Assembly: GCA_947259415.1 (NCBI GenBank)
Contig: CAMYMI010000007.1
Coordinates: forward strand, 35,565 to 99,564
DNA length: 64,000 nt
Source: an uncultured Ectothiorhodospiraceae bacterium
GTDB taxonomy: Bacteria; Pseudomonadota; Gammaproteobacteria; UBA9214
Reading direction: 5' to 3'
The notes beneath the pieces were generated by a model. The model saw nothing but the letters and a program-made list of their open reading frames with translations, searched no databases and was not told the origin of the DNA. The position numbers were made by a program, and so were the translations under genes. Below, piece by piece: positions 129 through 57,189 of the stretch. Numbering within the stretch: the stretch's first letter is position 1; each line of letters opens with the position of its first letter.

Positions 129-641
129 TCACGATGTTTTCAAGGGTGTCAGGTCTACGCCCTCGTGATCCAGCAGCCACAGCTTGCGCTGCAGTTCGGG
201 TCCGGCCGTGTGCCCGGCATAACCACCGATGCCGGAGGCCCCGACCACGCGGTGACAGGGCACGACGATCGTCAGCGGGTTGTGGCGACAGGCATTGCCC
301 AGGGCGCGGGCGCCACTGCCCAGCTGCACGGCAAGTTCACCGTAGCTCCGGGTCTGTCCGGTCGGGATGGCACTGAGCGCAGTGAGCACGCGTTGCTGGA
401 ACGGCGTTGCGGCTGGCGCAACAGGGACACTGAAGCGCTGCTGTGCATCCTCGAAGTAGCCTTCGAACTCTGCGGCCACCCGTGACGCAAACAGGGAAAC
501 CGGCACCTGCAAGGGCACTGTGTCCGGGAGGAACTCCACCCGGGACAGTTGTCCTGCCTGCAGGCGTATACCCAGCCGCCCCAGTGGCGACTCCAGCACA
601 CAATCAAACCCGGTTTCTGCGTCCTTCATCTCAGCGGGCAA
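129..641 (-). CDS. ogt: methylated-DNA--protein-cysteine methyltransferase (Ogt/MGMT)
   Basis: Translation contains the MGMT active-site motif PCHRVV and a typical ~170 aa length; the start may be the Met at 629 because a terminator hairpin abuts 641. Confidence 0.85.
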   Translation of the reverse strand: MPAEMKDAETGFDCVLESPLGRLGIRLQAGQLSRVEFLPDTVPLQVPVSLFASRVAAEFEGYFEDAQQRFSVPVAPAATPFQQRVLTALSAIPTGQTRSYGELAVQLGSGARALGNACRHNPLTIVVPCHRVVGASGIGGYAGHTAGPELQRKLWLLDHEGVDLTPLKTS

Positions 642-680
642 AAAAAACGGGCACCCTGTGACAGGGTGCCCGTTTGATCA
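641..680 (-). terminator. intrinsic terminator downstream of rplS (minus strand)
   Basis: 11-bp GC-rich stem cgggcaccctg/cagggtgcccg (648-672) with a 3-nt loop, followed on the minus strand by a run of 8 T (plus-strand A8 at 640-647). Confidence 0.6.
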
Positions 681-705
681 ACAGCAGCATGTCTGCCATC
701 CAGGT

Positions 706-1050
706 TCAGAGCTTCTCCTTGATACGCGCGGACTTGCCGGAGCGCTCACGGAGGTAATAAAGCTTGGCACGGCGGACATCCCCCCGGCGTTTGACCTTGA
801 TGGAGCCGATCGCCGGGCTGTGTGACTGGAATACACGCTCCACACCCTCTCCATGGGATATCTTGCGCACGGTGAAGGCCGAATTGAGGCCGCGGTTACG
901 CATGGCGATGACCACACCCTCGAACGCCTGCAGACGTTCGCGGTTCCCTTCCTTGACCTTGACCTGAACCACGACCGTGTCACCGGGACTGAAGTCCGGA
1001 ATATCCTTTTTCAACTGTTCCTGTTCAAGTTGTTCGATAATATTGCTCAT
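706..1050 (-). CDS. rplS: 50S ribosomal protein L19
   Basis: [12 protein letters not shown]... is a typical L19 sequence; start taken at the internal Met of the ORF 706..1086; lies in the conserved rpsP-rimM-trmD-rplS operon. Confidence 0.95.
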
Positions 1051-1092
1051 TACCCGATCCTCTGTTTTGCATCCGGGCAGGAACACTGATGA

Positions 1093-1842
1093 TCAATGGT
1101 CCTGCCCGCCACTTTCCTTAATATACTCGTTCAATAATTCCAGCTGAACATCATCCAGCGCCATCGCCTCCAGCAGATCGGGGCGCCGTTGCCAGGTCCG
1201 CCCGAGTGCCTGCTTTTGTCGCCAGCGGCGAATATCCGCATGGTTACCACCCAGCAGGACTACCGGTACCCGTCGTCCGTCAACCTCTTCCGGCCGCGTG
1301 TAATGCGGGTAGTCCAGCAGACCGTCCATAAAGGAGTCCTGCTGCGCGGAATCCGCATCGCCCAGCGCACCGGGCAACATCCGCGTGATGGCGTCCACAA
1401 GCACCAGCACCGGCAACTCACCGCCACTCAGGACGTAGTCACCTATCGACCATTCCTCGTCCACTTCCATTTCGATGACACGTTCATCGATACCTTCGTA
1501 ACGGCCCGCTAACAGGATCAGCCGCTCGAAACCGGCAAGCTCACGGACCCGTGACTGGGTGAGCCGCTGACCCTGGGGTGACAGATATATCACCGGGGCC
1601 TTTCCCGCCGCCGCCCGGGCAGCCCGGATAGCATCCCGCAACGGTTGCACCTGCATCACCATGCCCGGACCACCGCCGTAGGGCCGGTCGTCGACCCCCC
1701 TGTGCTTTTCCCGGCTGTAATCGCGGGGATTCCAGGTCACCAGTTCCAGCAGGCCGAGTCTGAAGGCACGGCCCTGGATACCATAACCGCTTTGCGCCCG
1801 GATCATCTCCGGGAACAGTGTCACCACATCAATGCGCATCAT
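1093..1842 (-). CDS. trmD: tRNA (guanine37-N1)-methyltransferase
   Basis: [14 protein letters not shown]... TrmD N-terminus and SPOUT-fold length; operon context. Confidence 0.95.
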
Positions 1843-1850
1843 CGGGCGTG

Positions 1851-2387
1851 TCAGAAATCCGGGTCCCAGTCGACCCGTATCTGGCGCCCGGCGAGATCGA
1901 CTGTATTGATCACCTGACCCTGTATAAACGGTACCAGGTATTCCCGTTCGCCCCTGATCACCAGTACGTCATTGGAACCGGTCTCGATCAAATGGTCGAC
2001 GATACCCAGTTCCTTGCCATCCAGAGTAACCACGTGCAGCCCGACAAGGTCATCCCAGTAATACTCATTGTCATCCGTAAGTGGCAATTGCTCCCGGAAA
2101 ATACCGATCTCGGTGCCCGAGTAGCTTGCCGCCATGTCACGGTCTCTGCAATCCGGCAGGCGCACAATCAGACCCTTGCCGTGACGTCGTCCCTCGACCA
2201 CGTCGACGGACTGCCAGACGTTATCCTGCCTGAGTTGCCAGGGCCTGTAGTCCAGCAGGTTCTCCAGCGGCTTCGTATAGGACACGACCCGTACCCAGCC
2301 CTTGACGCCGTAGGGGCCTGCGATATGCCCCATGATGATGGGACTGCTTGCAGCCCTGGTGCCCGGCGTGTCGTGAACAACCACCAT
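1851..2387 (-). CDS. rimM: 16S rRNA processing protein RimM
   Basis: [15 protein letters not shown] motif characteristic of RimM; sits between rpsP and trmD. Confidence 0.9.
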
Positions 2388-2423
2388 GTAAGTACCGGAT
2401 AACAGCTACCCGGGACGCAGTCG

Positions 2424-2669
2424 TTATTGCTGGCGGTGCTCTTTAAGCAATTTGCCGACGCGCTCGGAGATCTGGGCGCCCTTACCGCTCCAGTAATCTG
2501 CGCGCTCGGTATCAATCCTCAGACGCTCTTCACTACCCGTGGCAATCGGGTTGAAAAAGCCGATACGCTCGATGTAACGACCGTCTCGCCGGTTACGGCT
2601 GTCGGTCACTACGATGTGGTAGAAAGGACGTTTCTTGGCGCCACTGCGTGACATCCTGATCGTCACCAT
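2424..2669 (-). CDS. rpsP: 30S ribosomal protein S16
   Basis: [21 protein letters not shown]... canonical S16. Confidence 0.95.
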
Positions 2670-3052
2670 GAACCTGTTTCCTCATTCAGCTGGGTAATGT
2701 CGCCGCCCCGTGCAGGCCGCAACCGTTTAAAACCGCGCAATTCTACGCGATCGGCAGAAAATGTGAAGGGCTGACAGGCAATCAGTGTAAATGATTAGCC
2801 ACTTGTAACGAACCGGATGATGTGACCTTGTCAATATAGCTGCTATCTGTCGAATATCATTACAGCCGGCCAGTTTGAGGCTATTTTTAAAAAGAAAATT
2901 CCTAACTACCTGTATCTATTAATTATTATTTCGACAAGTCAAGCGCCTCGTGGCGGCCGAATGTCGGTAATTATTACAATCAGCGGCATCGCTCTCTACT
3001 AACCGTCAAAGAGATGACTCTAAGTGAACGCAATCACTACCATTTTTTATCT

Positions 3053-3068
3053 TGGCACGGTGATTGCT
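3053..3068 (+). promoter_or_regulatory. candidate sigma-54 (RpoN) promoter, -24/-12 elements
   Basis: TGGCACggtgaTTGCT matches the TGGCAC-N5-TTGCW consensus exactly, with GG and GC spaced 12 nt; it lies in the 617-bp AT-rich rpsP-ffh spacer and points toward the hairpin at 3232. Confidence 0.4.
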
Positions 3069-3079
3069 GTCTTATCTAC

Positions 3080-3262
3080 GCTGATCAGTCGAAGTTTCGC
3101 GGAGGAGTTTTCACCCGGAGCATAAAAAATTCGAACTCATTGCATACAACAATAACCGGGTTCGCGCACGGCAATAATTAAAACAAGCGGTCAATAACAA
3201 GAAAAACCAGCCGAATTCGCGCAACATTTCACGGTGGCCCTGGCCACCGTTTTTATTTTCTG
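3080..3262 (+). ncRNA. candidate sigma-54-dependent small RNA (~180 nt), A-rich with ARN/CA motifs
   Basis: Bracketed by the sigma-54 consensus (start site predicted ~3080) and a plus-strand intrinsic terminator at 3232-3260; no ORF of 60 aa or more on either strand across 2670-3234; contains ACAACAAUAAC and CAAUAACAAGAAAAAC tracts resembling Hfq/Crc-binding ARN motifs. Confidence 0.3.
3232..3260 (+). terminator. intrinsic terminator (plus strand; may also act bidirectionally for ffh)
   Basis: 7-bp GC stem cggtggc/gccaccg with tetraloop, followed by GTTTTTATTTTCT; the U-tract is on the plus strand only, 27 nt downstream of the ffh stop on the other strand. Confidence 0.6.
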
Positions 3263-3286
3263 CCGGGCGCCGCCGGCACCACCAGT

Positions 3287-4654
3287 TCACATACCCTGGA
3301 ACGGAAAACCCTGGGGTGCCTTACCCTTGAGTCCACGCAGCATCTTGCCCATACCGCCCTTGGACATCTTCTTCATCATCTTGCGCATCTGGATGTATTG
3401 CTTGAGAAGCCGGTTCACATCCTGTACCTGGGTCCCGGATCCGGCCGCAATACGCCGCCGGCGTGAGCCCTTGATAACATCCGGAAAATGGCGTTCCTGC
3501 TGTGTCATGGAGCTGATGATCGCGACCATGCGACTGAGATCACGGTCATTCACCATTGACTTGGCGTTCTGTGGCAATTGACCCATACCCGGCAATTTGT
3601 CCATTAACCCGGACAAGCCACCCATGTTCTGCATCTGTTCGAGCTGTTCGCGGAAGTCATCCATGTCAAAACGCTTTCCCCTGGAGATCTTGTTGGCCAG
3701 CCGGGCGACCTTTTCCTTGTCAACCTTCTGCTCGGCCTCTTCCACCAGGCTGAGCACATCACCCATCCCCAGAATGCGCGAGGCCACCCGGTCAGGGTAG
3801 AACGGTTCCAGGGCGGCCGTCTTTTCTCCGACACCGATGAACTTGATGGGCTTGCCGGTAATCGAGCGAATTGACAGGGCCGCACCACCCCGGGCATCAC
3901 CGTCGGTCTTGGTGAGGATCACGCCGGTCAGTGGCAGGGCCTCGTTGAAGGTATGCGCGGTATTGGCCGCGTCCTGGCCGGTCATGCTGTCAACCACGAA
4001 GAGTGTCTCGACCGGCTGCAGTACCTGATGAATCTGATGGATCTCTTCCATCATTTCATCATCGATGTGAAGGCGGCCTGCGGTATCGATGATCACCACA
4101 TCGATGTGATGCCTGCGCGCATGCGCCACGGCATCCCGGGCGATAGCGACCGGCTCCTGGTCGGGATGACTCGGAAAGAATTTCGCACCGACCTCCCTGG
4201 ACAGGGTTTGCAACTGGTCGATCGCAGCCGGACGGTATATGTCACAACTCGCCAACAGTACCGACTTTTTGTGGCGTTCCTGTAACAGGCGTGCCAGCTT
4301 GGCACTGCTGGTGGTCTTGCCGGATCCCTGCAGACCGGCCATCAGGATAACCGCAGGCGGCTGGACACTGAGGTTCAGGGCATCGTTGGCCTCGCCCATG
4401 ACCCGGACGAGTTCATCGTTCACCACCTTGACCAGGGTCTGGCCCGGGGTCAGGCTTTTCAGCACCTCCTGGCCAGTAGCACGTTCCCGCACCCTGTCGA
4501 TGAAGTCCTTGACGACCGGCAGGGCGACATCGGCCTCGAGCAGTGCCATGCGGACTTCCCGCAAGGTCTCCTTGATATTGTCCTCGGTCAGCCGGCCCTG
4601 GCCACGCAGATTCTTGATGGTTCGGGAAAGGCGTTCAGTAAGATTGTCGAACAT
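3287..4654 (-). CDS. ffh: signal recognition particle protein Ffh
   Basis: NG domain with GLQGSGKTT P-loop and a Met-rich C-terminal M domain; conserved position upstream of rpsP. Confidence 0.95.
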   Translation of the reverse strand: MFDNLTERLSRTIKNLRGQGRLTEDNIKETLREVRMALLEADVALPVVKDFIDRVRERATGQEVLKSLTPGQTLVKVVNDELVRVMGEANDALNLSVQPPAVILMAGLQGSGKTTSSAKLARLLQERHKKSVLLASCDIYRPAAIDQLQTLSREVGAKFFPSHPDQEPVAIARDAVAHARRHHIDVVIIDTAGRLHIDDEMMEEIHQIHQVLQPVETLFVVDSMTGQDAANTAHTFNEALPLTGVILTKTDGDARGGAALSIRSITGKPIKFIGVGEKTAALEPFYPDRVASRILGMGDVLSLVEEAEQKVDKEKVARLANKISRGKRFDMDDFREQLEQMQNMGGLSGLMDKLPGMGQLPQNAKSMVNDRDLSRMVAIISSMTQQERHFPDVIKGSRRRRIAAGSGTQVQDVNRLLKQYIQMRKMMKKMSKGGMGKMLRGLKGKAPQGFPFQGM

Positions 4655-4821
4655 GGTTCAGGTATTGTTTGCAAACGGAATCGAAGTGCGCATTATAACC
4701 GGAATGAAAATACCAGGGGCTGGATCGTTTTCTGTGCCCTTGCCGCTTGACGGACAGCGCTTCAATGCCTTACAAAGTTATGCGATGATGACCTCATGAA
4801 ATCCGGACGCCAGCCTTTGCT

Positions 4822-5634
4822 ATGACATCCTACATTCCCGGATTGCTCGCCATCATACTTTACGTGCTGGCCAGCGGTCTGCTGACTGCACGACTGGCAC
4901 ATGGACCGGGCGAGAGGGCCAGCCAGAAAACCCAGATCCTGATTATCGCTGTCGCTGCAATAGTGATTCATGGCGGACTGCTCTACCAGTCGATTCTGAC
5001 GCCGGCCGGTATGGACCTCGGATTCTTCAACGCCGCCTCGCTGATCTCACTGTTGACCGCGACCCTGCTGTTGCTGGCCTCGTTCCAGGAGCCGGTCGAA
5101 AACCTGGGTATCCCGGTATTTGCAGTGGCCGCCCTCAGCATCGGCCTCGGCCTCCTCTATCCAACCGACCGGATCATTACCAGCGGGACCCAATCCTGGC
5201 AGCTGGATACCCATATCCTGATCTCGCTACTGGCCTACAGCGTGCTGGGCCTGGCCGTGCTGCAGGCGCTGCTGCTGGCCATCCAGGACTATCATCTGCA
5301 CAACCGCCAGCCCGGCGGTTTTATCCGCTCACTACCGCCGCTGCAGACCATGGAATCGCTGATGTTCCAGATGATCCGGATCGGTTTTGTCCTGTTGAGC
5401 CTGGCGCTGTTCACCGGAGTCCTGTTCCTGGAGGATATCTTTGCCCAGCATCTGGTGCACAAGACTGTCCTGTCCATCGTCGCCTGGCTGGTGTTCGCCA
5501 CCCTGCTCTGGGGTCGCTGGCGTTTTGGCTGGCGCGGTCAGGTTGCCATCCGCTGGACCGTGGGTGGATTCGTGTTTCTGATGCTCGCCTATTTCGGCAG
5601 CAAACTGGTGCTGGAGCTGATTCTCAACCGCTGA
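4822..5634 (+). CDS. ypjD: inner membrane protein, CcsA/cytochrome c assembly family (YpjD-like)
   Basis: Polytopic membrane protein divergent from ffh, as ypjD is in E. coli and Pseudomonas; 270 aa. Confidence 0.75.
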   Translation: MTSYIPGLLAIILYVLASGLLTARLAHGPGERASQKTQILIIAVAAIVIHGGLLYQSILTPAGMDLGFFNAASLISLLTATLLLLASFQEPVENLGIPVFAVAALSIGLGLLYPTDRIITSGTQSWQLDTHILISLLAYSVLGLAVLQALLLAIQDYHLHNRQPGGFIRSLPPLQTMESLMFQMIRIGFVLLSLALFTGVLFLEDIFAQHLVHKTVLSIVAWLVFATLLWGRWRFGWRGQVAIRWTVGGFVFLMLAYFGSKLVLELILNR

Positions 5635-5708
5635 TGGCCGCAATTCCTGACAGGCCCGGCAAAATTACGTAAACTGGCGACTGGCCACTATCACGAGACT
5701 GTCCCCGT

Positions 5709-7001
5709 TTGGACGACATCCCGCTCAACATACTTCTGGTCGCGCTGTTTTTTCTCATCCTGCTCTCCGCCTTCTTCTCCGGCTCCGAAACCGGTCTGAT
5801 GACGCTGAATCGTTACCGGCTTCGCAATCTGGCAGAAAGCGGTCACCCCAATGCCCGCCGAGCCGAGCGTTTACTGAAACGACCGGACCGGTTGATCGGA
5901 CTGATCCTGCTCGGCAACAATTTTGTCAACATCCTGGCCTCCATGCTTGCCACGATCATTGCCCTGCGCCTTCTGGGGGAGGCCGGGATCGCGATTGCGG
6001 CCGGACTGCTGACACTGGTTGTGCTGATATTCGCCGAGGTGGCACCGAAAACACTGGGCGCATTGCATCCGGAGCGCATCGCCTTTCCGGCGGCCTTTGT
6101 CTATACACCGCTACTCAAAGTACTTTATCCGCTGGTGTGGCTGGTCAATCTCCTGGCCAACACCCTGCTGAAACGGCTGGGGGTATCGACAGAAGAAGGC
6201 GGGTCCACCGCCCTCTCACACGAGGAGCTGCGCACCGTGGTCATCGAAGCGGGTGCTATGATCCCGGCACGTCACCAGGAAATGCTGCTCAACCTGATGG
6301 ATCTCGAACAAGTGACCGTCGAAGACATCATGGTGCCGCGCAACGAGATTACCGGTGTCGACATCGACGACGACTGGGAGGCGATCACCAAGCAGCTTGC
6401 CGCCAGTCAGTACACACGGCTGCCACTGTACCGCGACAATATCGACCAGGTCATAGGCATCCTGCACATGCGTGATGTGCTGCCACTATTGAACCTCAAG
6501 GAACTCGACCGGGTTGCCTTGCGGCGCATCGTACGCGAACCCTACTTCATCCCGGAGGCGACCACGCTGAATCACCAGCTGCTTAATTTTCAGCGAGAAA
6601 AACGCCGTATCGGCTTCGCCGTCAATGAATACGGCGATATCCAGGGCCTGGTGACACTCGAGGACATCCTGGAAGAGATTGTCGGCGAGTTTACCTCGGA
6701 CCCTGCCGCACATTTCGAAAACATCATTACGCAGCCGGACGGTACCTGGCTGGTTGATGGTTCGGTCAATATCCGTACCCTGAATTCGGTACTGCGAATG
6801 CAGCTCCCCACCGACGGGCCGAAGACCCTGAATGGCCTGATCACCGAATACCTGGAGATGATCCCGGAAACCGATACCAGCCTGTTACTCGACCAGCACC
6901 CGGTCGATATCATCCAGATCAGGGAGAATATGGTGAAGACGGCTCGCATCCATCCGGCGCTCCCTGAAACCGGCGAACAGGAACCGGCAGACCAATCATG
7001 A
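5709..7001 (+). CDS. CNNM/CorC-HlyC family transporter (CorB/YfjD-like): DUF21 + CBS pair + CorC_HlyC
   Basis: N-terminal 4-TM DUF21, tandem CBS, C-terminal transporter-associated domain; TTG start at 5709; follows ypjD as in E. coli. Confidence 0.85.
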   Translation: MDDIPLNILLVALFFLILLSAFFSGSETGLMTLNRYRLRNLAESGHPNARRAERLLKRPDRLIGLILLGNNFVNILASMLATIIALRLLGEAGIAIAAGLLTLVVLIFAEVAPKTLGALHPERIAFPAAFVYTPLLKVLYPLVWLVNLLANTLLKRLGVSTEEGGSTALSHEELRTVVIEAGAMIPARHQEMLLNLMDLEQVTVEDIMVPRNEITGVDIDDDWEAITKQLAASQYTRLPLYRDNIDQVIGILHMRDVLPLLNLKELDRVALRRIVREPYFIPEATTLNHQLLNFQREKRRIGFAVNEYGDIQGLVTLEDILEEIVGEFTSDPAAHFENIITQPDGTWLVDGSVNIRTLNSVLRMQLPTDGPKTLNGLITEYLEMIPETDTSLLLDQHPVDIIQIRENMVKTARIHPALPETGEQEPADQS

Positions 7002-19552: not shown

Positions 19553-19639
19553 GCCGAGGTGGCGGAATTGGTAGACGCGCTAGCTTCAGGTGCTAGTGGG
19601 GGTAACCCCGTGGAGGTTCAAGTCCTCTCCTCGGCACCA
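19553..19639 (+). tRNA. tRNA-Leu (anticodon CAG)
   Basis: 87 nt, type II tRNA with long variable arm, anticodon loop cuUCAGgu, T-arm GGTTCAAGTCC, encoded CCA; occupies the same position as tRNA-Leu between rnr and purA in Pseudomonas. Confidence 0.9.
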
Positions 19640-55579: not shown

Positions 55580-56902
55580 CTAGGCAGTCCCCGCAAGGAG
55601 ATCATCGGAATCAGCTGAATGAAAGCGGACACCCTGCTCCGGGTCGCTGGTCAGCCTGTCGACATCACGCCTTGCCATCCTGACTTCAAGCCACCAGTCA
55701 CCCTGTTCGTCCACGTGCTCGGACAGGACGCAACCCGTCTCGAAAAGGCTGGAGCGAATAGCGCCTGCCCATGACGACAAATGCAACCATCCGTGCACCT
55801 GTTCACCCTCAAAATACTCTGTCAATGCGGCTGCCAGCAGGTCCAGGCCGTTTCCACTCATGGCCGACAGCCAGATCCTGGAAATCCTGCCCTCGGCATC
55901 ACGTTCCACCCGCGGCTCCATACCGTTGAGGTCGATCTTGTTGTAGACACACAGTTGCGGCACCTTGTCCGCACCTATTTCGCGTAATACCTCGTTGACC
56001 TGCTCGATACGCGCCCCGCGATCAGCATCCTGCACATCAACGACATGCAACAGCAGATCGGCCTTGCGGGTCTCTTCCAGCGTGGCACGGAAGGCCGCGA
56101 CCAGGTCATGTGGAAGGTGGCGTATGAAGCCAACCGTATCGGCCAGTACCAACGGTCCTACACCGCGGAGCTCGATTCGCCGCAGGGTCGGGTCCAGCGT
56201 TGCGAACATCTGGTCCGCTGTATAGGCATGGGCACCGGTGATCGCGTTAAACAGGGTCGACTTGCCGGCATTGGTGTAACCGACCAGCGATACCGAGGGC
56301 ACATCGGCCCGGCTGCGTGCCCGGCGCCCCTGGTCACGCTGACGCTCGACCTTCTCGAGGCGCTTGTTGATCATCTTGATGCGCGCATTGATCATGCGGC
56401 GATCAGATTCCAGCTGGGTCTCACCCGGCCCGCGCAGGCCGATACCACCCTTCTGGCGTTCCAGGTGAGTCCAGCCGCGCACCAGTCGGGTTGACAGGTG
56501 GCGCAACTGCGCCAGCTCGACCTGCAGCTTGCCCTCGAACGAACGCGCACGCTGGGCGAATATATCCAGTATCAGGCCCGTCCGCGCCAGCACCCTGCAG
56601 GACAGCAGCCGCTCCAGGTTGCGTTCCTGGCTGGGGCTCAGGGCGTGATTGAAGATGACGATGTCAGCCTGCGTTTCCTGAACAGTTTTGTGGATTTCTT
56701 CGGCCTTGCCATGCCCGACATACAGGCGCGGGTCCGGCGCAGTTCGCGTCGCCATGACGGTTGCAACCGGGATCGCACCCGCAGAGCGAACAAGTTCGGT
56801 GAATTCCTGGAGGTCCTCCCGGTCATTACCGGCGGGAAAGTTCACATGGACCAGAACGGCCCGCTCACCACTTTCAGGGCGTTCGAACAAACATCCACCC
56901 AA
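55580..56902 (-). CDS. hflX: ribosome-associated GTPase HflX
   Basis: G1 GYTNAGKST, G3 DTVGF, G4 NKID; downstream of hfq. Confidence 0.95.
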   Translation of the reverse strand: MGGCLFERPESGERAVLVHVNFPAGNDREDLQEFTELVRSAGAIPVATVMATRTAPDPRLYVGHGKAEEIHKTVQETQADIVIFNHALSPSQERNLERLLSCRVLARTGLILDIFAQRARSFEGKLQVELAQLRHLSTRLVRGWTHLERQKGGIGLRGPGETQLESDRRMINARIKMINKRLEKVERQRDQGRRARSRADVPSVSLVGYTNAGKSTLFNAITGAHAYTADQMFATLDPTLRRIELRGVGPLVLADTVGFIRHLPHDLVAAFRATLEETRKADLLLHVVDVQDADRGARIEQVNEVLREIGADKVPQLCVYNKIDLNGMEPRVERDAEGRISRIWLSAMSGNGLDLLAAALTEYFEGEQVHGWLHLSSWAGAIRSSLFETGCVLSEHVDEQGDWWLEVRMARRDVDRLTSDPEQGVRFHSADSDDLLAGTA

Positions 56903-56922
56903 GTAGTATAGTGGTAATGGTT

Positions 56923-57189
56923 TCAGGCATTACCCGGCTCATTTCCACTGTTGTTATCGGGAGCAGCGTCTGATCCCATGAACCTGACATTGCGCGCAGG
57001 CACGACGGTTGAAATTGCATGCTTGTAGACCATCTGGCTGACAGCATTCTTGAGAAGAACCACAAACTGGTCAAACGACTCGATCTGACCCTGCAGCTTG
57101 ATGCCATTGACCAGATAAATAGACACCGGGACTCGCTCCTTGCGAAGTGCGTTTAAAAACGGGTCTTGCAAAGATTGTCCTCTATTCAT
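56923..57189 (-). CDS. hfq: RNA chaperone Hfq
   Basis: [45 protein letters not shown] Sm1/Sm2 motifs; start at MNRGQSL. Confidence 0.95.

Follow-up and report, generated by a model that had tools for sequence, protein, structure and literature searches.

The stretch of DNA considered here is a window of 64,000 nucleotides from an uncultured Ectothiorhodospiraceae bacterium (contig CAMYMI010000007.1, positions 35,565 to 99,564), and the element in question is a predicted small RNA (sRNA) gene in the spacer between ffh and rpsP. The spacer is flanked by minus-strand genes, ffh on one side and rpsP, rimM, trmD and rplS on the other, and plus-strand ypjD-like and corC/yfjD-like genes are found upstream of ffh (Table 1). 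An initial annotation of this DNA had drawn attention to the unusual length of the spacer, and indeed its 617 bp compare with 248 bp in Escherichia coli K-12, where the gene order is identical. The GC content given by the same annotation, about 40%, was an underestimate; the measured value is 46.5%, versus 59.8% for the whole window, and only the central part of the spacer (2801-3200) falls to 41-44%. The statement that no open reading frame (ORF) of 60 aa or more occurs there is correct for frames contained within the spacer, but ORFs of 59 aa (3111-3290, minus strand) and 55 aa (3014-3181, plus strand) lie inside it, and a 115-aa GTG ORF begins at 3234 and continues antisense into ffh. An origin of the AT-richer spacer as a mobile element or foreign DNA was rejected, blastn having found no match in plasmids or in E. 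coli genomes.

Table 1. Features of the ffh-rpsP spacer and associated genes, in window coordinates.
Feature	Position	Strand	Remarks
rpsP	2424-2669	minus	flanking gene
ffh-rpsP spacer	2670-3286		617 bp
Sigma-70-like promoter (TTCACA-16-TAGAAT) of the divergent operon rpsP-rimM-trmD-rplS	2740-2767	minus	matches 10/12 positions
Distal enhancer box 1, TGTCGAATATCATTACA (TGTCG-N7-TTACA)	2848-2864	plus	starts ~231 nt before the predicted transcription start
AT-rich block between the boxes, CTAACTACCTGTATCTATTAATTATTATTT (relatives: ..CTTATTGTTTT..)	2901-2930		candidate bending site
Proximal enhancer box 2, TGTCGGTAATTATTACA (TGTCG-N7-TTAC)	2962-2978	plus	starts ~117 nt before the predicted transcription start
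IHF-like conserved block, CCGTCAAAGAGATGACTCTAAGTG	3003-3026		about -76 to -53, between box 2 and promoter
Sigma-54 (-24/-12) promoter, TGGCACGGTGATTGCT (TGGCAC-N5-TTGCT)	3053-3068	plus	predicted start near 3079
Predicted small non-coding RNA	3079-3260	plus	~180 nt, 46% GC, 32% A
G-rich motif CGGAGGAG, then CCGGAGC	3099-3120	plus	two GGA-containing motifs, 5' third of the RNA
Conserved UCAUUGCA, then ARN tract 1 (ACAACAAUAAC)	3137-3156	plus	strongest candidate for an unpaired seed or for binding to the Hfq distal face
Nearly invariant box CGGGUUCGCGCACGGC	3157-3172	plus	5' half of predicted closing helix
A-rich loop AAUAAUUAAAACAAGCGGUCAAUAACAAGAAAAACCA	3173-3209	plus	five ARN triplets in succession (AAU AAC AAG AAA AAC)
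GCCGAAUUCGCGCAAC	3210-3225	plus	3' half of predicted closing helix
Intrinsic terminator ACGGUGGCC-CUG-GCCACCGU, then UUUUUAUUUU	3231-3260	plus	from terminator scan
ffh	3287-4654	minus	flanking gene
hfq	56923-57189	minus	~89 aa, canonical N-terminal Sm core; directly upstream of hflX (region 55580-57189)

The promoter listed in Table 1 is the single exact match to TGGCAC-N5-TTGCW on either strand of the window, where 0.06 matches are expected, and at least one such match appeared in 6 of 100 shuffles. It combines GG at -24, GC at -12, the 10-bp spacing and the extended consensus, all conserved at orthologous positions, and it is read on the strand opposite to both ffh and rpsP; the transcription start was placed by the standard GG(-24)/GC(-12) geometry. 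Roughly 180 nt away lies the only terminator-like site that a terminator scan detects across 2300-3700, an 8-bp GC-rich stem (3231-3250) followed by TTTTTATTTT up to 3260. A T-run succeeds the hairpin on the plus strand alone; on the ffh strand GAAATG stands in its place. The hairpin itself is found about 36 nt beyond the ffh stop codon. Both the exact sigma-54 consensus and the plus-strand terminator had been put forward in the initial annotation, and both withstood scrutiny, as did the presence in the intervening RNA of two A-rich strings, ACAACAATAAC (3146-3156) and CAATAACAAGAAAAAC (3192-3207).

The strongest case against a chance arrangement is that promoter, RNA body and terminator are kept in all 17 distinct relatives that were sampled. 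These relatives, all metagenomic, represent 11 lineages with RimM proteins 57-93% identical, and they were reached by three routes. A RimM scan of one genome per species gave three metagenome-assembled genomes of uncultured Ectothiorhodospiraceae (RimM 79-84% identical). A metagenome scan with a pattern confined to the RNA body, CGGGTTCGCGC-N30-60-GCGCAACATT, returned 18 stretches, two of them true homologues, both with the promoter, and the 16 others unrelated and used as controls. RimM protein searches followed by contig look-ups covered RimM identities of 93, 85, 68, 65, 65, 64, 63, 61, 58, 57 and 57%. Each of the 17 has TGGCA[CT]-N5-TTGC, an interval of 185-240 nt, ACGGTGGC-loop-GCCACCGT and a T-run, in the same locus and in the same orientation, on the strand opposite ffh and rpsP. 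Conservation of the TGGCAC and TTGC elements, on which the earlier proposal had been staked, thus extends to every relative fetched, down to a RimM identity of 57%.

A profile of 14 homologues searched with nhmmer has one match in the window, at 3078-3260 (E=1e-45), with no paralogue elsewhere in it, and it matches the same position in every relative, at E values of 1e-18 to 1e-49, but neither the E. coli locus nor any of the 16 unrelated controls. The gene order corC/yfjD-ypjD-ffh-[sRNA]-rpsP-rimM-trmD-rplS-ogt-like-htpG-dsbA (window 129-7001) is maintained in all sampled lineages, and the spacer measures 570-800 bp in every relative locus examined. From yfjD to rplS this is also the order of E. 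coli K-12, which is without the sRNA module, its ffh-rpsP spacer containing neither a sigma-54 site nor a profile match. Between lineages the RNA body is just 50-63% identical, and conservation among 13 diverse representatives is concentrated in islands, namely TTGGCACG and TTGCT of the promoter, TCATTGCA (3137-3144), CGGGTT.GCGCA (3157-3168), GCCGA (3210-3214), GCGCA (3219-3223) and the terminator (3231-3254). The islands fall on the functional elements and the sequence between them drifts. The module and its conservation are matters of computational observation, and it is very likely that the spacer contains a genuine sigma-54-driven RNA gene. A 33-aa hydrophobic GTG ORF (MNAITTIFYLGTVIAVLSTLISRSFAEEFSPGA; 3024-3125, plus strand) spans the sigma-54 promoter; no promoter belongs to the ORF itself and distant relatives do not retain it, and where close relatives seem to keep it, this is owed to conservation of the sigma-54 promoter.

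Upstream of the promoter, alignment of 300 bp from 16-17 distinct sequences revealed a repeated motif, TGTCG-N7-TTAC(A). In the 64 kb, both strands counted, TGTCG-N7-TTAC occurs just twice, and these occurrences are the two boxes of Table 1. Box 1 was found in all 17 distinct homologues, and in the same 17 box 2 begins 91±1 bp (90-92) before the T of TGGCA. The distance between the boxes takes the values 105/106, 112-118 or 126 bp, with none at 107-111 or 119-125, so that, at 10.5 bp per turn, the spacings group around 10, 11 and 12 helical turns. A dyad that the initial annotation had described in this region as cgaca-N21-tgtcg reads in fact cgaca(2932-2936)-N25-tgtcg(2962-2966), and its left half is not conserved; the tgtcg half alone is conserved because it forms the start of box 2. 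Between the boxes, an AT-rich stretch with a TTGT core is partly conserved in all upstream alignments and may be a bending site, to judge by its composition. Between box 2 and the promoter lies a block resembling a site for integration host factor (IHF), within which GCGTCAA-N4-ATGAC..AAG recurs in most lineages. On the minus strand this block agrees with the IHF consensus WATCARXXXXTTR (PMC3045617) at 7 of the 9 positions that the consensus specifies, a match that taken alone is just suggestive. Duplicated upstream sites in the -100 to -250 range with an IHF-like block between them and the promoter are what the sequence presents, and by its features this is the classic enhancer layout. Activator-dependent sigma-54 promoters of this anatomy drive crcZ (PMC6296734) and glmY (PMC3045617). 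By this textbook-quality signature, the promoter probably depends on sigma-54 and an enhancer-binding protein (EBP).

The same conserved elements could in principle be DNA-level control sites, activator sites of the rpsP operon promoter at one end and a terminator shared with ffh at the other, and yield no stable RNA. Box 1 does precede the rpsP -35 element by just 73-87 bp, and the invariant terminator stem follows the ffh stop by about 36 nt. Box 2 is locked to the sigma-54 promoter, however, whereas box 1 stands at a drifting distance from that of rpsP, and only on the plus strand is the hairpin succeeded by a T-run. Moreover, the interval of about 150 nt between promoter and terminator holds conserved blocks for which rpsP or ffh signals would have no need, and the -24/-12 element is perfect in 17 of 17 sequences. 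Control at the DNA level without an RNA product is accordingly highly improbable.

The rpsP promoter is itself well preserved. The sigma-70-like promoter of the rpsP operon is conserved in all relatives, and some 290 bp separate it from the oppositely oriented sigma-54 promoter. Together with the rpsP leader (2670-2770, minus strand), the sigma-70-like promoter is among the best-conserved parts of the spacer, with a column identity of 0.74-0.88. The leader includes a GC-rich hairpin-like segment, GCGGCCTGCACGGGGCGGCGAC, and the same region gives a weak, sub-threshold and probably meaningless Rfam match to Atu_C7.

Within the predicted RNA, the position of the G-rich motif GG(D)GGAG is kept in 16 of 17 sequences, and a second motif, C(C)GGA(G/A), is present in about 13 of the 17, usually 8-15 nt further on. 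The pair recalls the paired GGA sites of CsrA/RsmA; in total, GGA is not enriched in the RNA over shuffles. Further along, the nearly invariant box at 3157-3172 has a GCGC that is identical in 14 of 14 sequences. The RNAalifold prediction for 14 sequences contains the terminator and, over a longer range, the helix GUUcGCGC/GCGCAAC, to which single-sequence folds add CGGC/GCCG pairing, and together these helices would enclose the A-rich loop, the length of which ranges from 38 to 70 nt among homologues. In the two most divergent members, reading of the sequences indicates that other complementary runs replace CGGC/GCCG. One relative, L001, has a 21-nt insertion in this loop (~4150-4200, minus strand, aligned to window 3173-3190) formed by tandem duplication of AAATAACGAT (x2), and ARN tract 1 differs among relatives by ACA/AAC units; from these changes it appears that the A-rich parts evolve by repeat slippage. 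The blocks UCAUUGCAC and GGGUUCGCGCACGGC are candidate seeds for target pairing.

In all homologues the terminator stem, ACGGUGGC/GCCACCGU, has one and the same sequence, and the loop alone varies; the flanking GCGC and CGGC/GCCG segments are likewise invariant, against 50-60% identity in the remaining RNA. For a terminator stem, such invariance is unusual among lineages that diverge by 40-50% elsewhere. Because the stems of ordinary terminators covary, an invariant stem raises the possibility of a sequence-specific partner or of a role on both strands.

The transcript might instead encode a very small protein, for example from a TTG-initiated ORF of 13 codons, LHTTITGFAHGNN, at 3140-3181, a counterpart of which is seen in several close relatives. 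A Shine-Dalgarno-like GGAGGAG is available at 3101-3107, yet the TTG itself has no Shine-Dalgarno sequence upstream, and most homologues lack an ATG, GTG or TTG at a usable distance after the G-rich motif. Across the conserved GGGTTCGCGC block the frame shifts in L001 and L034, and in L022 the stop is lost, while the nucleotides are kept. No ORF in the RNA is conserved among the homologues, and a coding function, the least credible of the explanations considered here, is very improbable.

The window RNA has four matches to AAnAAnAA, overlapping and amounting to two or three tracts, versus 0.5 in dinucleotide shuffles (P=0.008), and enrichment of ARN/AAnAAnAA motifs over such shuffles is significant in 11 of 16 homologues; enrichment of the ARN tracts to which the initial annotation had pointed extends to most homologues, not to all. 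With its terminator and UUUUUAUUUU U-tail, ARN runs of up to five triplets and an hfq gene in the same window, the system displays the sequence features of the Hfq class, and the genome encodes a canonical Hfq that would in principle be able to bind an ARN/U-tail RNA. Since a U-tailed terminator and ARN tracts occur together, the RNA would probably be bound on both the proximal and the distal face of Hfq; by motif content and by analogy, association with Hfq is favoured, if by a modest degree of confidence.

With gene and promoter unchanged, an RNA of this composition could instead of base pairing act as a decoy that titrates a protein, either a CrcZ-like sponge for Hfq or a CsrA-type binder that uses its GGA motifs. 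A length of about 180 nt with four AAnAAnAA matches and five successive ARN triplets would suit a sponge, and the loop duplication in L001 and the 38-70 nt range of loop lengths are as expected if the number of motifs, and not a fixed seed, is what matters; a CsrA-type binder would find support in the conserved positions of GG(D)GGAG and C(C)GGA. There is, further, a weak local likeness to the last CA motif and terminator of CrcZ. Against this stand the small number of A-rich tracts (just 2-3), the 4 of 16 homologues that show no enrichment, a GGA count not above that of shuffles, and the fact that the most conserved segments of the RNA, UCAUUGCA and GGGUUCGCGCACGGC, are not A-rich. The likeness to CrcZ (RF01675) amounts to 19.5 bits where the gathering score is 95, over model positions 278-377 (E=0.0073 in a search of 1.1 kb), and it does not recur in the loci of nine relatives. 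A pure decoy is on balance unlikely, and the preferred reading is an RNA that acts in trans on messenger RNAs, which may work as a base-pairing regulator or as a protein sponge.

No Rfam family covers the RNA at the gathering score in a scan of the window. In scans of the spacer at E<=10 the weak likeness to CrcZ is the one relevant match, and scans of the loci of nine relatives yielded no family either; the sole Rfam match at the gathering threshold in the entire window is a tRNA-Leu(CAG) with a long variable arm (19553-19639, plus strand). Full-text searches of the literature turned up no description of an sRNA between ffh and rpsP, in keeping with the statement of the initial annotation that no sigma-54-driven Hfq-titrating sRNA was known at this locus. 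CrcZ and CrcY of Pseudomonas also combine a sigma-54 promoter, upstream sites and IHF with a stand-alone RNA that ends at an intrinsic terminator and bears A-rich AAnAAnAA (CA/ARN) motifs, which in CrcZ bind Hfq (with Crc). CrcZ is, however, about 400 nt long with 5-6 tracts, compared with about 180 nt and 2-3 tracts here, and its gene adjoins cbrB, downstream of it, whereas ffh and rpsP are the neighbours at all loci of the present RNA. The CbrB subsites TGTTAC/GTAACA, spaced 12-16 nt (PMC6296734), do not fit TGTCG-N7-TTAC(A), and CbrAB has been described as exclusive to pseudomonads (PMC6296734, PMC8871633); CbrB was rejected as the activator. The kinship with CrcZ and Crc suggested by the initial annotation thus failed both the covariance-model test and the CbrB-site test.

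GlmY and GlmZ of Enterobacteriaceae are sRNAs of similar size with sigma-54 promoters, and their activator sites are multiple and start with TGTC, the enhancer being separated from the promoter by conserved IHF sites (PMC3045617). The GlrR consensus, TGTCN10GACA, is an 18-bp palindrome present at three sites (PMC3045617), unlike the two 17-bp boxes found here (TGTC-N9-TACA or TTAC), which are imperfectly symmetric and about 114 bp apart; GlrR was rejected because its consensus does not fit the boxes. There is no Rfam match to GlmY/GlmZ even at E<=10, and the gene does not stand beside glrK/glrR. GlmY and GlmZ are not known to carry ARN tracts. Qrr of Vibrio and NrsZ of Pseudomonas likewise depend on sigma-54 and an EBP (LuxO and NtrC, respectively), and Qrr depends on Hfq, but the RNA described here matches neither in Rfam and has no EBP gene in the window, whereas the qrr and nrsZ genes adjoin that of their activator and respond through different sites. 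Sites for NtrC, NifA (TGT-N10-ACA) and TyrR (TGTAAA-N6-TTTACA) do not fit the boxes either.

The RsmY/RsmZ/CsrB group shares conserved GGA motifs with the RNA, and in (C/A)TTACA its boxes have the same right half as the GacA box, TGTAAGN6CTTACA (PMC8523701, PMC11837529). This right half is all that is held in common; the GacA box is one base longer (18 bp as against 17), its left half is TGTAAG and not TGTCG, and the promoter here is of the sigma-54 type, and GacA was set aside as the activator. In addition, just 2-3 GGA motifs occur here, with no enrichment over shuffles. GacA, not being an AAA+ activator, is not known to drive a sigma-54 promoter. Class II Hfq-dependent sRNAs such as ChiX and MgrR, finally, resemble the RNA in pairing a U-tailed intrinsic terminator with internal ARN motifs, two features that in combination engage both Hfq faces, proximal and distal. 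They are enterobacterial genes of sigma-70 or other regulons with no sequence relation to the RNA, and represent a functional class, not a homologous family. As the RNA does not belong with CrcZ, GlmY/GlmZ, Qrr or NrsZ, it would form a family of its own within a familiar kind of regulator.

The preferred reading is, then, that the spacer holds a sigma-54- and enhancer-dependent sRNA of a new family that probably associates with Hfq and acts in trans, and we regard this reading as likely. It would be a gene in its own right, read in the direction of the 3' end of ffh with rpsP behind it. An EBP encoded elsewhere would bind both TGTCG-N7-TTAC(A) sites, about 117 and 231 nt before the start, and a bend at the IHF-like block (-76 to -53) would deliver this activator to sigma-54 RNA polymerase on 3053-3068. 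Transcription from about 3079 to the intrinsic terminator (3231-3260) would give a non-coding RNA of about 180 nt, composed of a variable 5' part with the conserved G-rich motif, of UCAUUGCA(C) with its ARN tract, and of a 3' part in which a helix (GCGC..CGGC / GCCG..GCGC) closes a large A-rich loop ahead of the U-tailed terminator. Hfq would most likely hold the U-tail on its proximal face and the ARN tracts on its distal face, and the RNA would then act in trans on messenger RNAs in the presence of the activator's signal. Binding by Hfq and action in trans are suggested by motif content and analogy, and the RNA is probably a regulator under stress or nutrient control.

Several observations weigh against this reading. 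The RNA is predicted from the DNA alone. Neither an EBP gene, by the signatures GAFTGA, Walker A and ESELFGH, nor rpoN, by that of the RpoN box, is present in the 64-kb window, which places the activator elsewhere in the genome. The folding energy of the whole RNA does not improve on that of shuffles (z=0.05). Covariation support is absent, with one compensatory event in 15 pairs and a covariation term of -0.07 to -0.37 kcal/mol, an outcome of the invariance of the paired segments in the closing helix and terminator; the closing helix is accordingly a prediction, and unproven. ARN enrichment is missing from L031, L032, L033 and L040. As for targets, RNAduplex comparisons of each homologue with its own rpsP and ffh translation-initiation regions gave z values of about 0, and the window contains 16 complementary 10-mers where 17 are expected, the level of chance. 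A 9-nt complementarity to the rpsP leader in L005 was rejected as a target site, as it is not conserved.

Only a few sigma-54-dependent sRNAs have been recognized, among them Qrr, GlmY/GlmZ, CrcZ/CrcY, NrsZ and a handful more, and each of these is the output of a major signalling pathway. The module described here is an unusually clean and fully conserved succession of enhancer, promoter, RNA and terminator, in a poorly cultured lineage labelled Ectothiorhodospiraceae/Gammaproteobacteria that has almost no experimental genetics. It offers a ready-made reporter for an undescribed two-component or EBP pathway, TGTCG-N7-TTAC(A) provides a defined DNA motif with which the regulon of the activator can be sought, and the alignment of 17 sequences is the basis for an Rfam-style model to annotate such genomes. 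The module points away from the promoter of rpsP-rimM-trmD-rplS and converges on ffh, a placement that is retained over deep divergence and might conceivably be functional too. It is conceivable, if a long shot, that the RNA and its activator form a lineage-wide global switch of uncultured sulfur-cycle Gammaproteobacteria that ranks with CbrB/CrcZ or LuxO/Qrr. Were this so, the invariant 3' domain, with the GCGC/CGGC helix and the terminator stem, would be the site for a dedicated protein partner and not a generic terminator, and the enhancer complex, the RNA or both could couple a sigma-54 signal to synthesis of the translation and signal recognition particle machinery.

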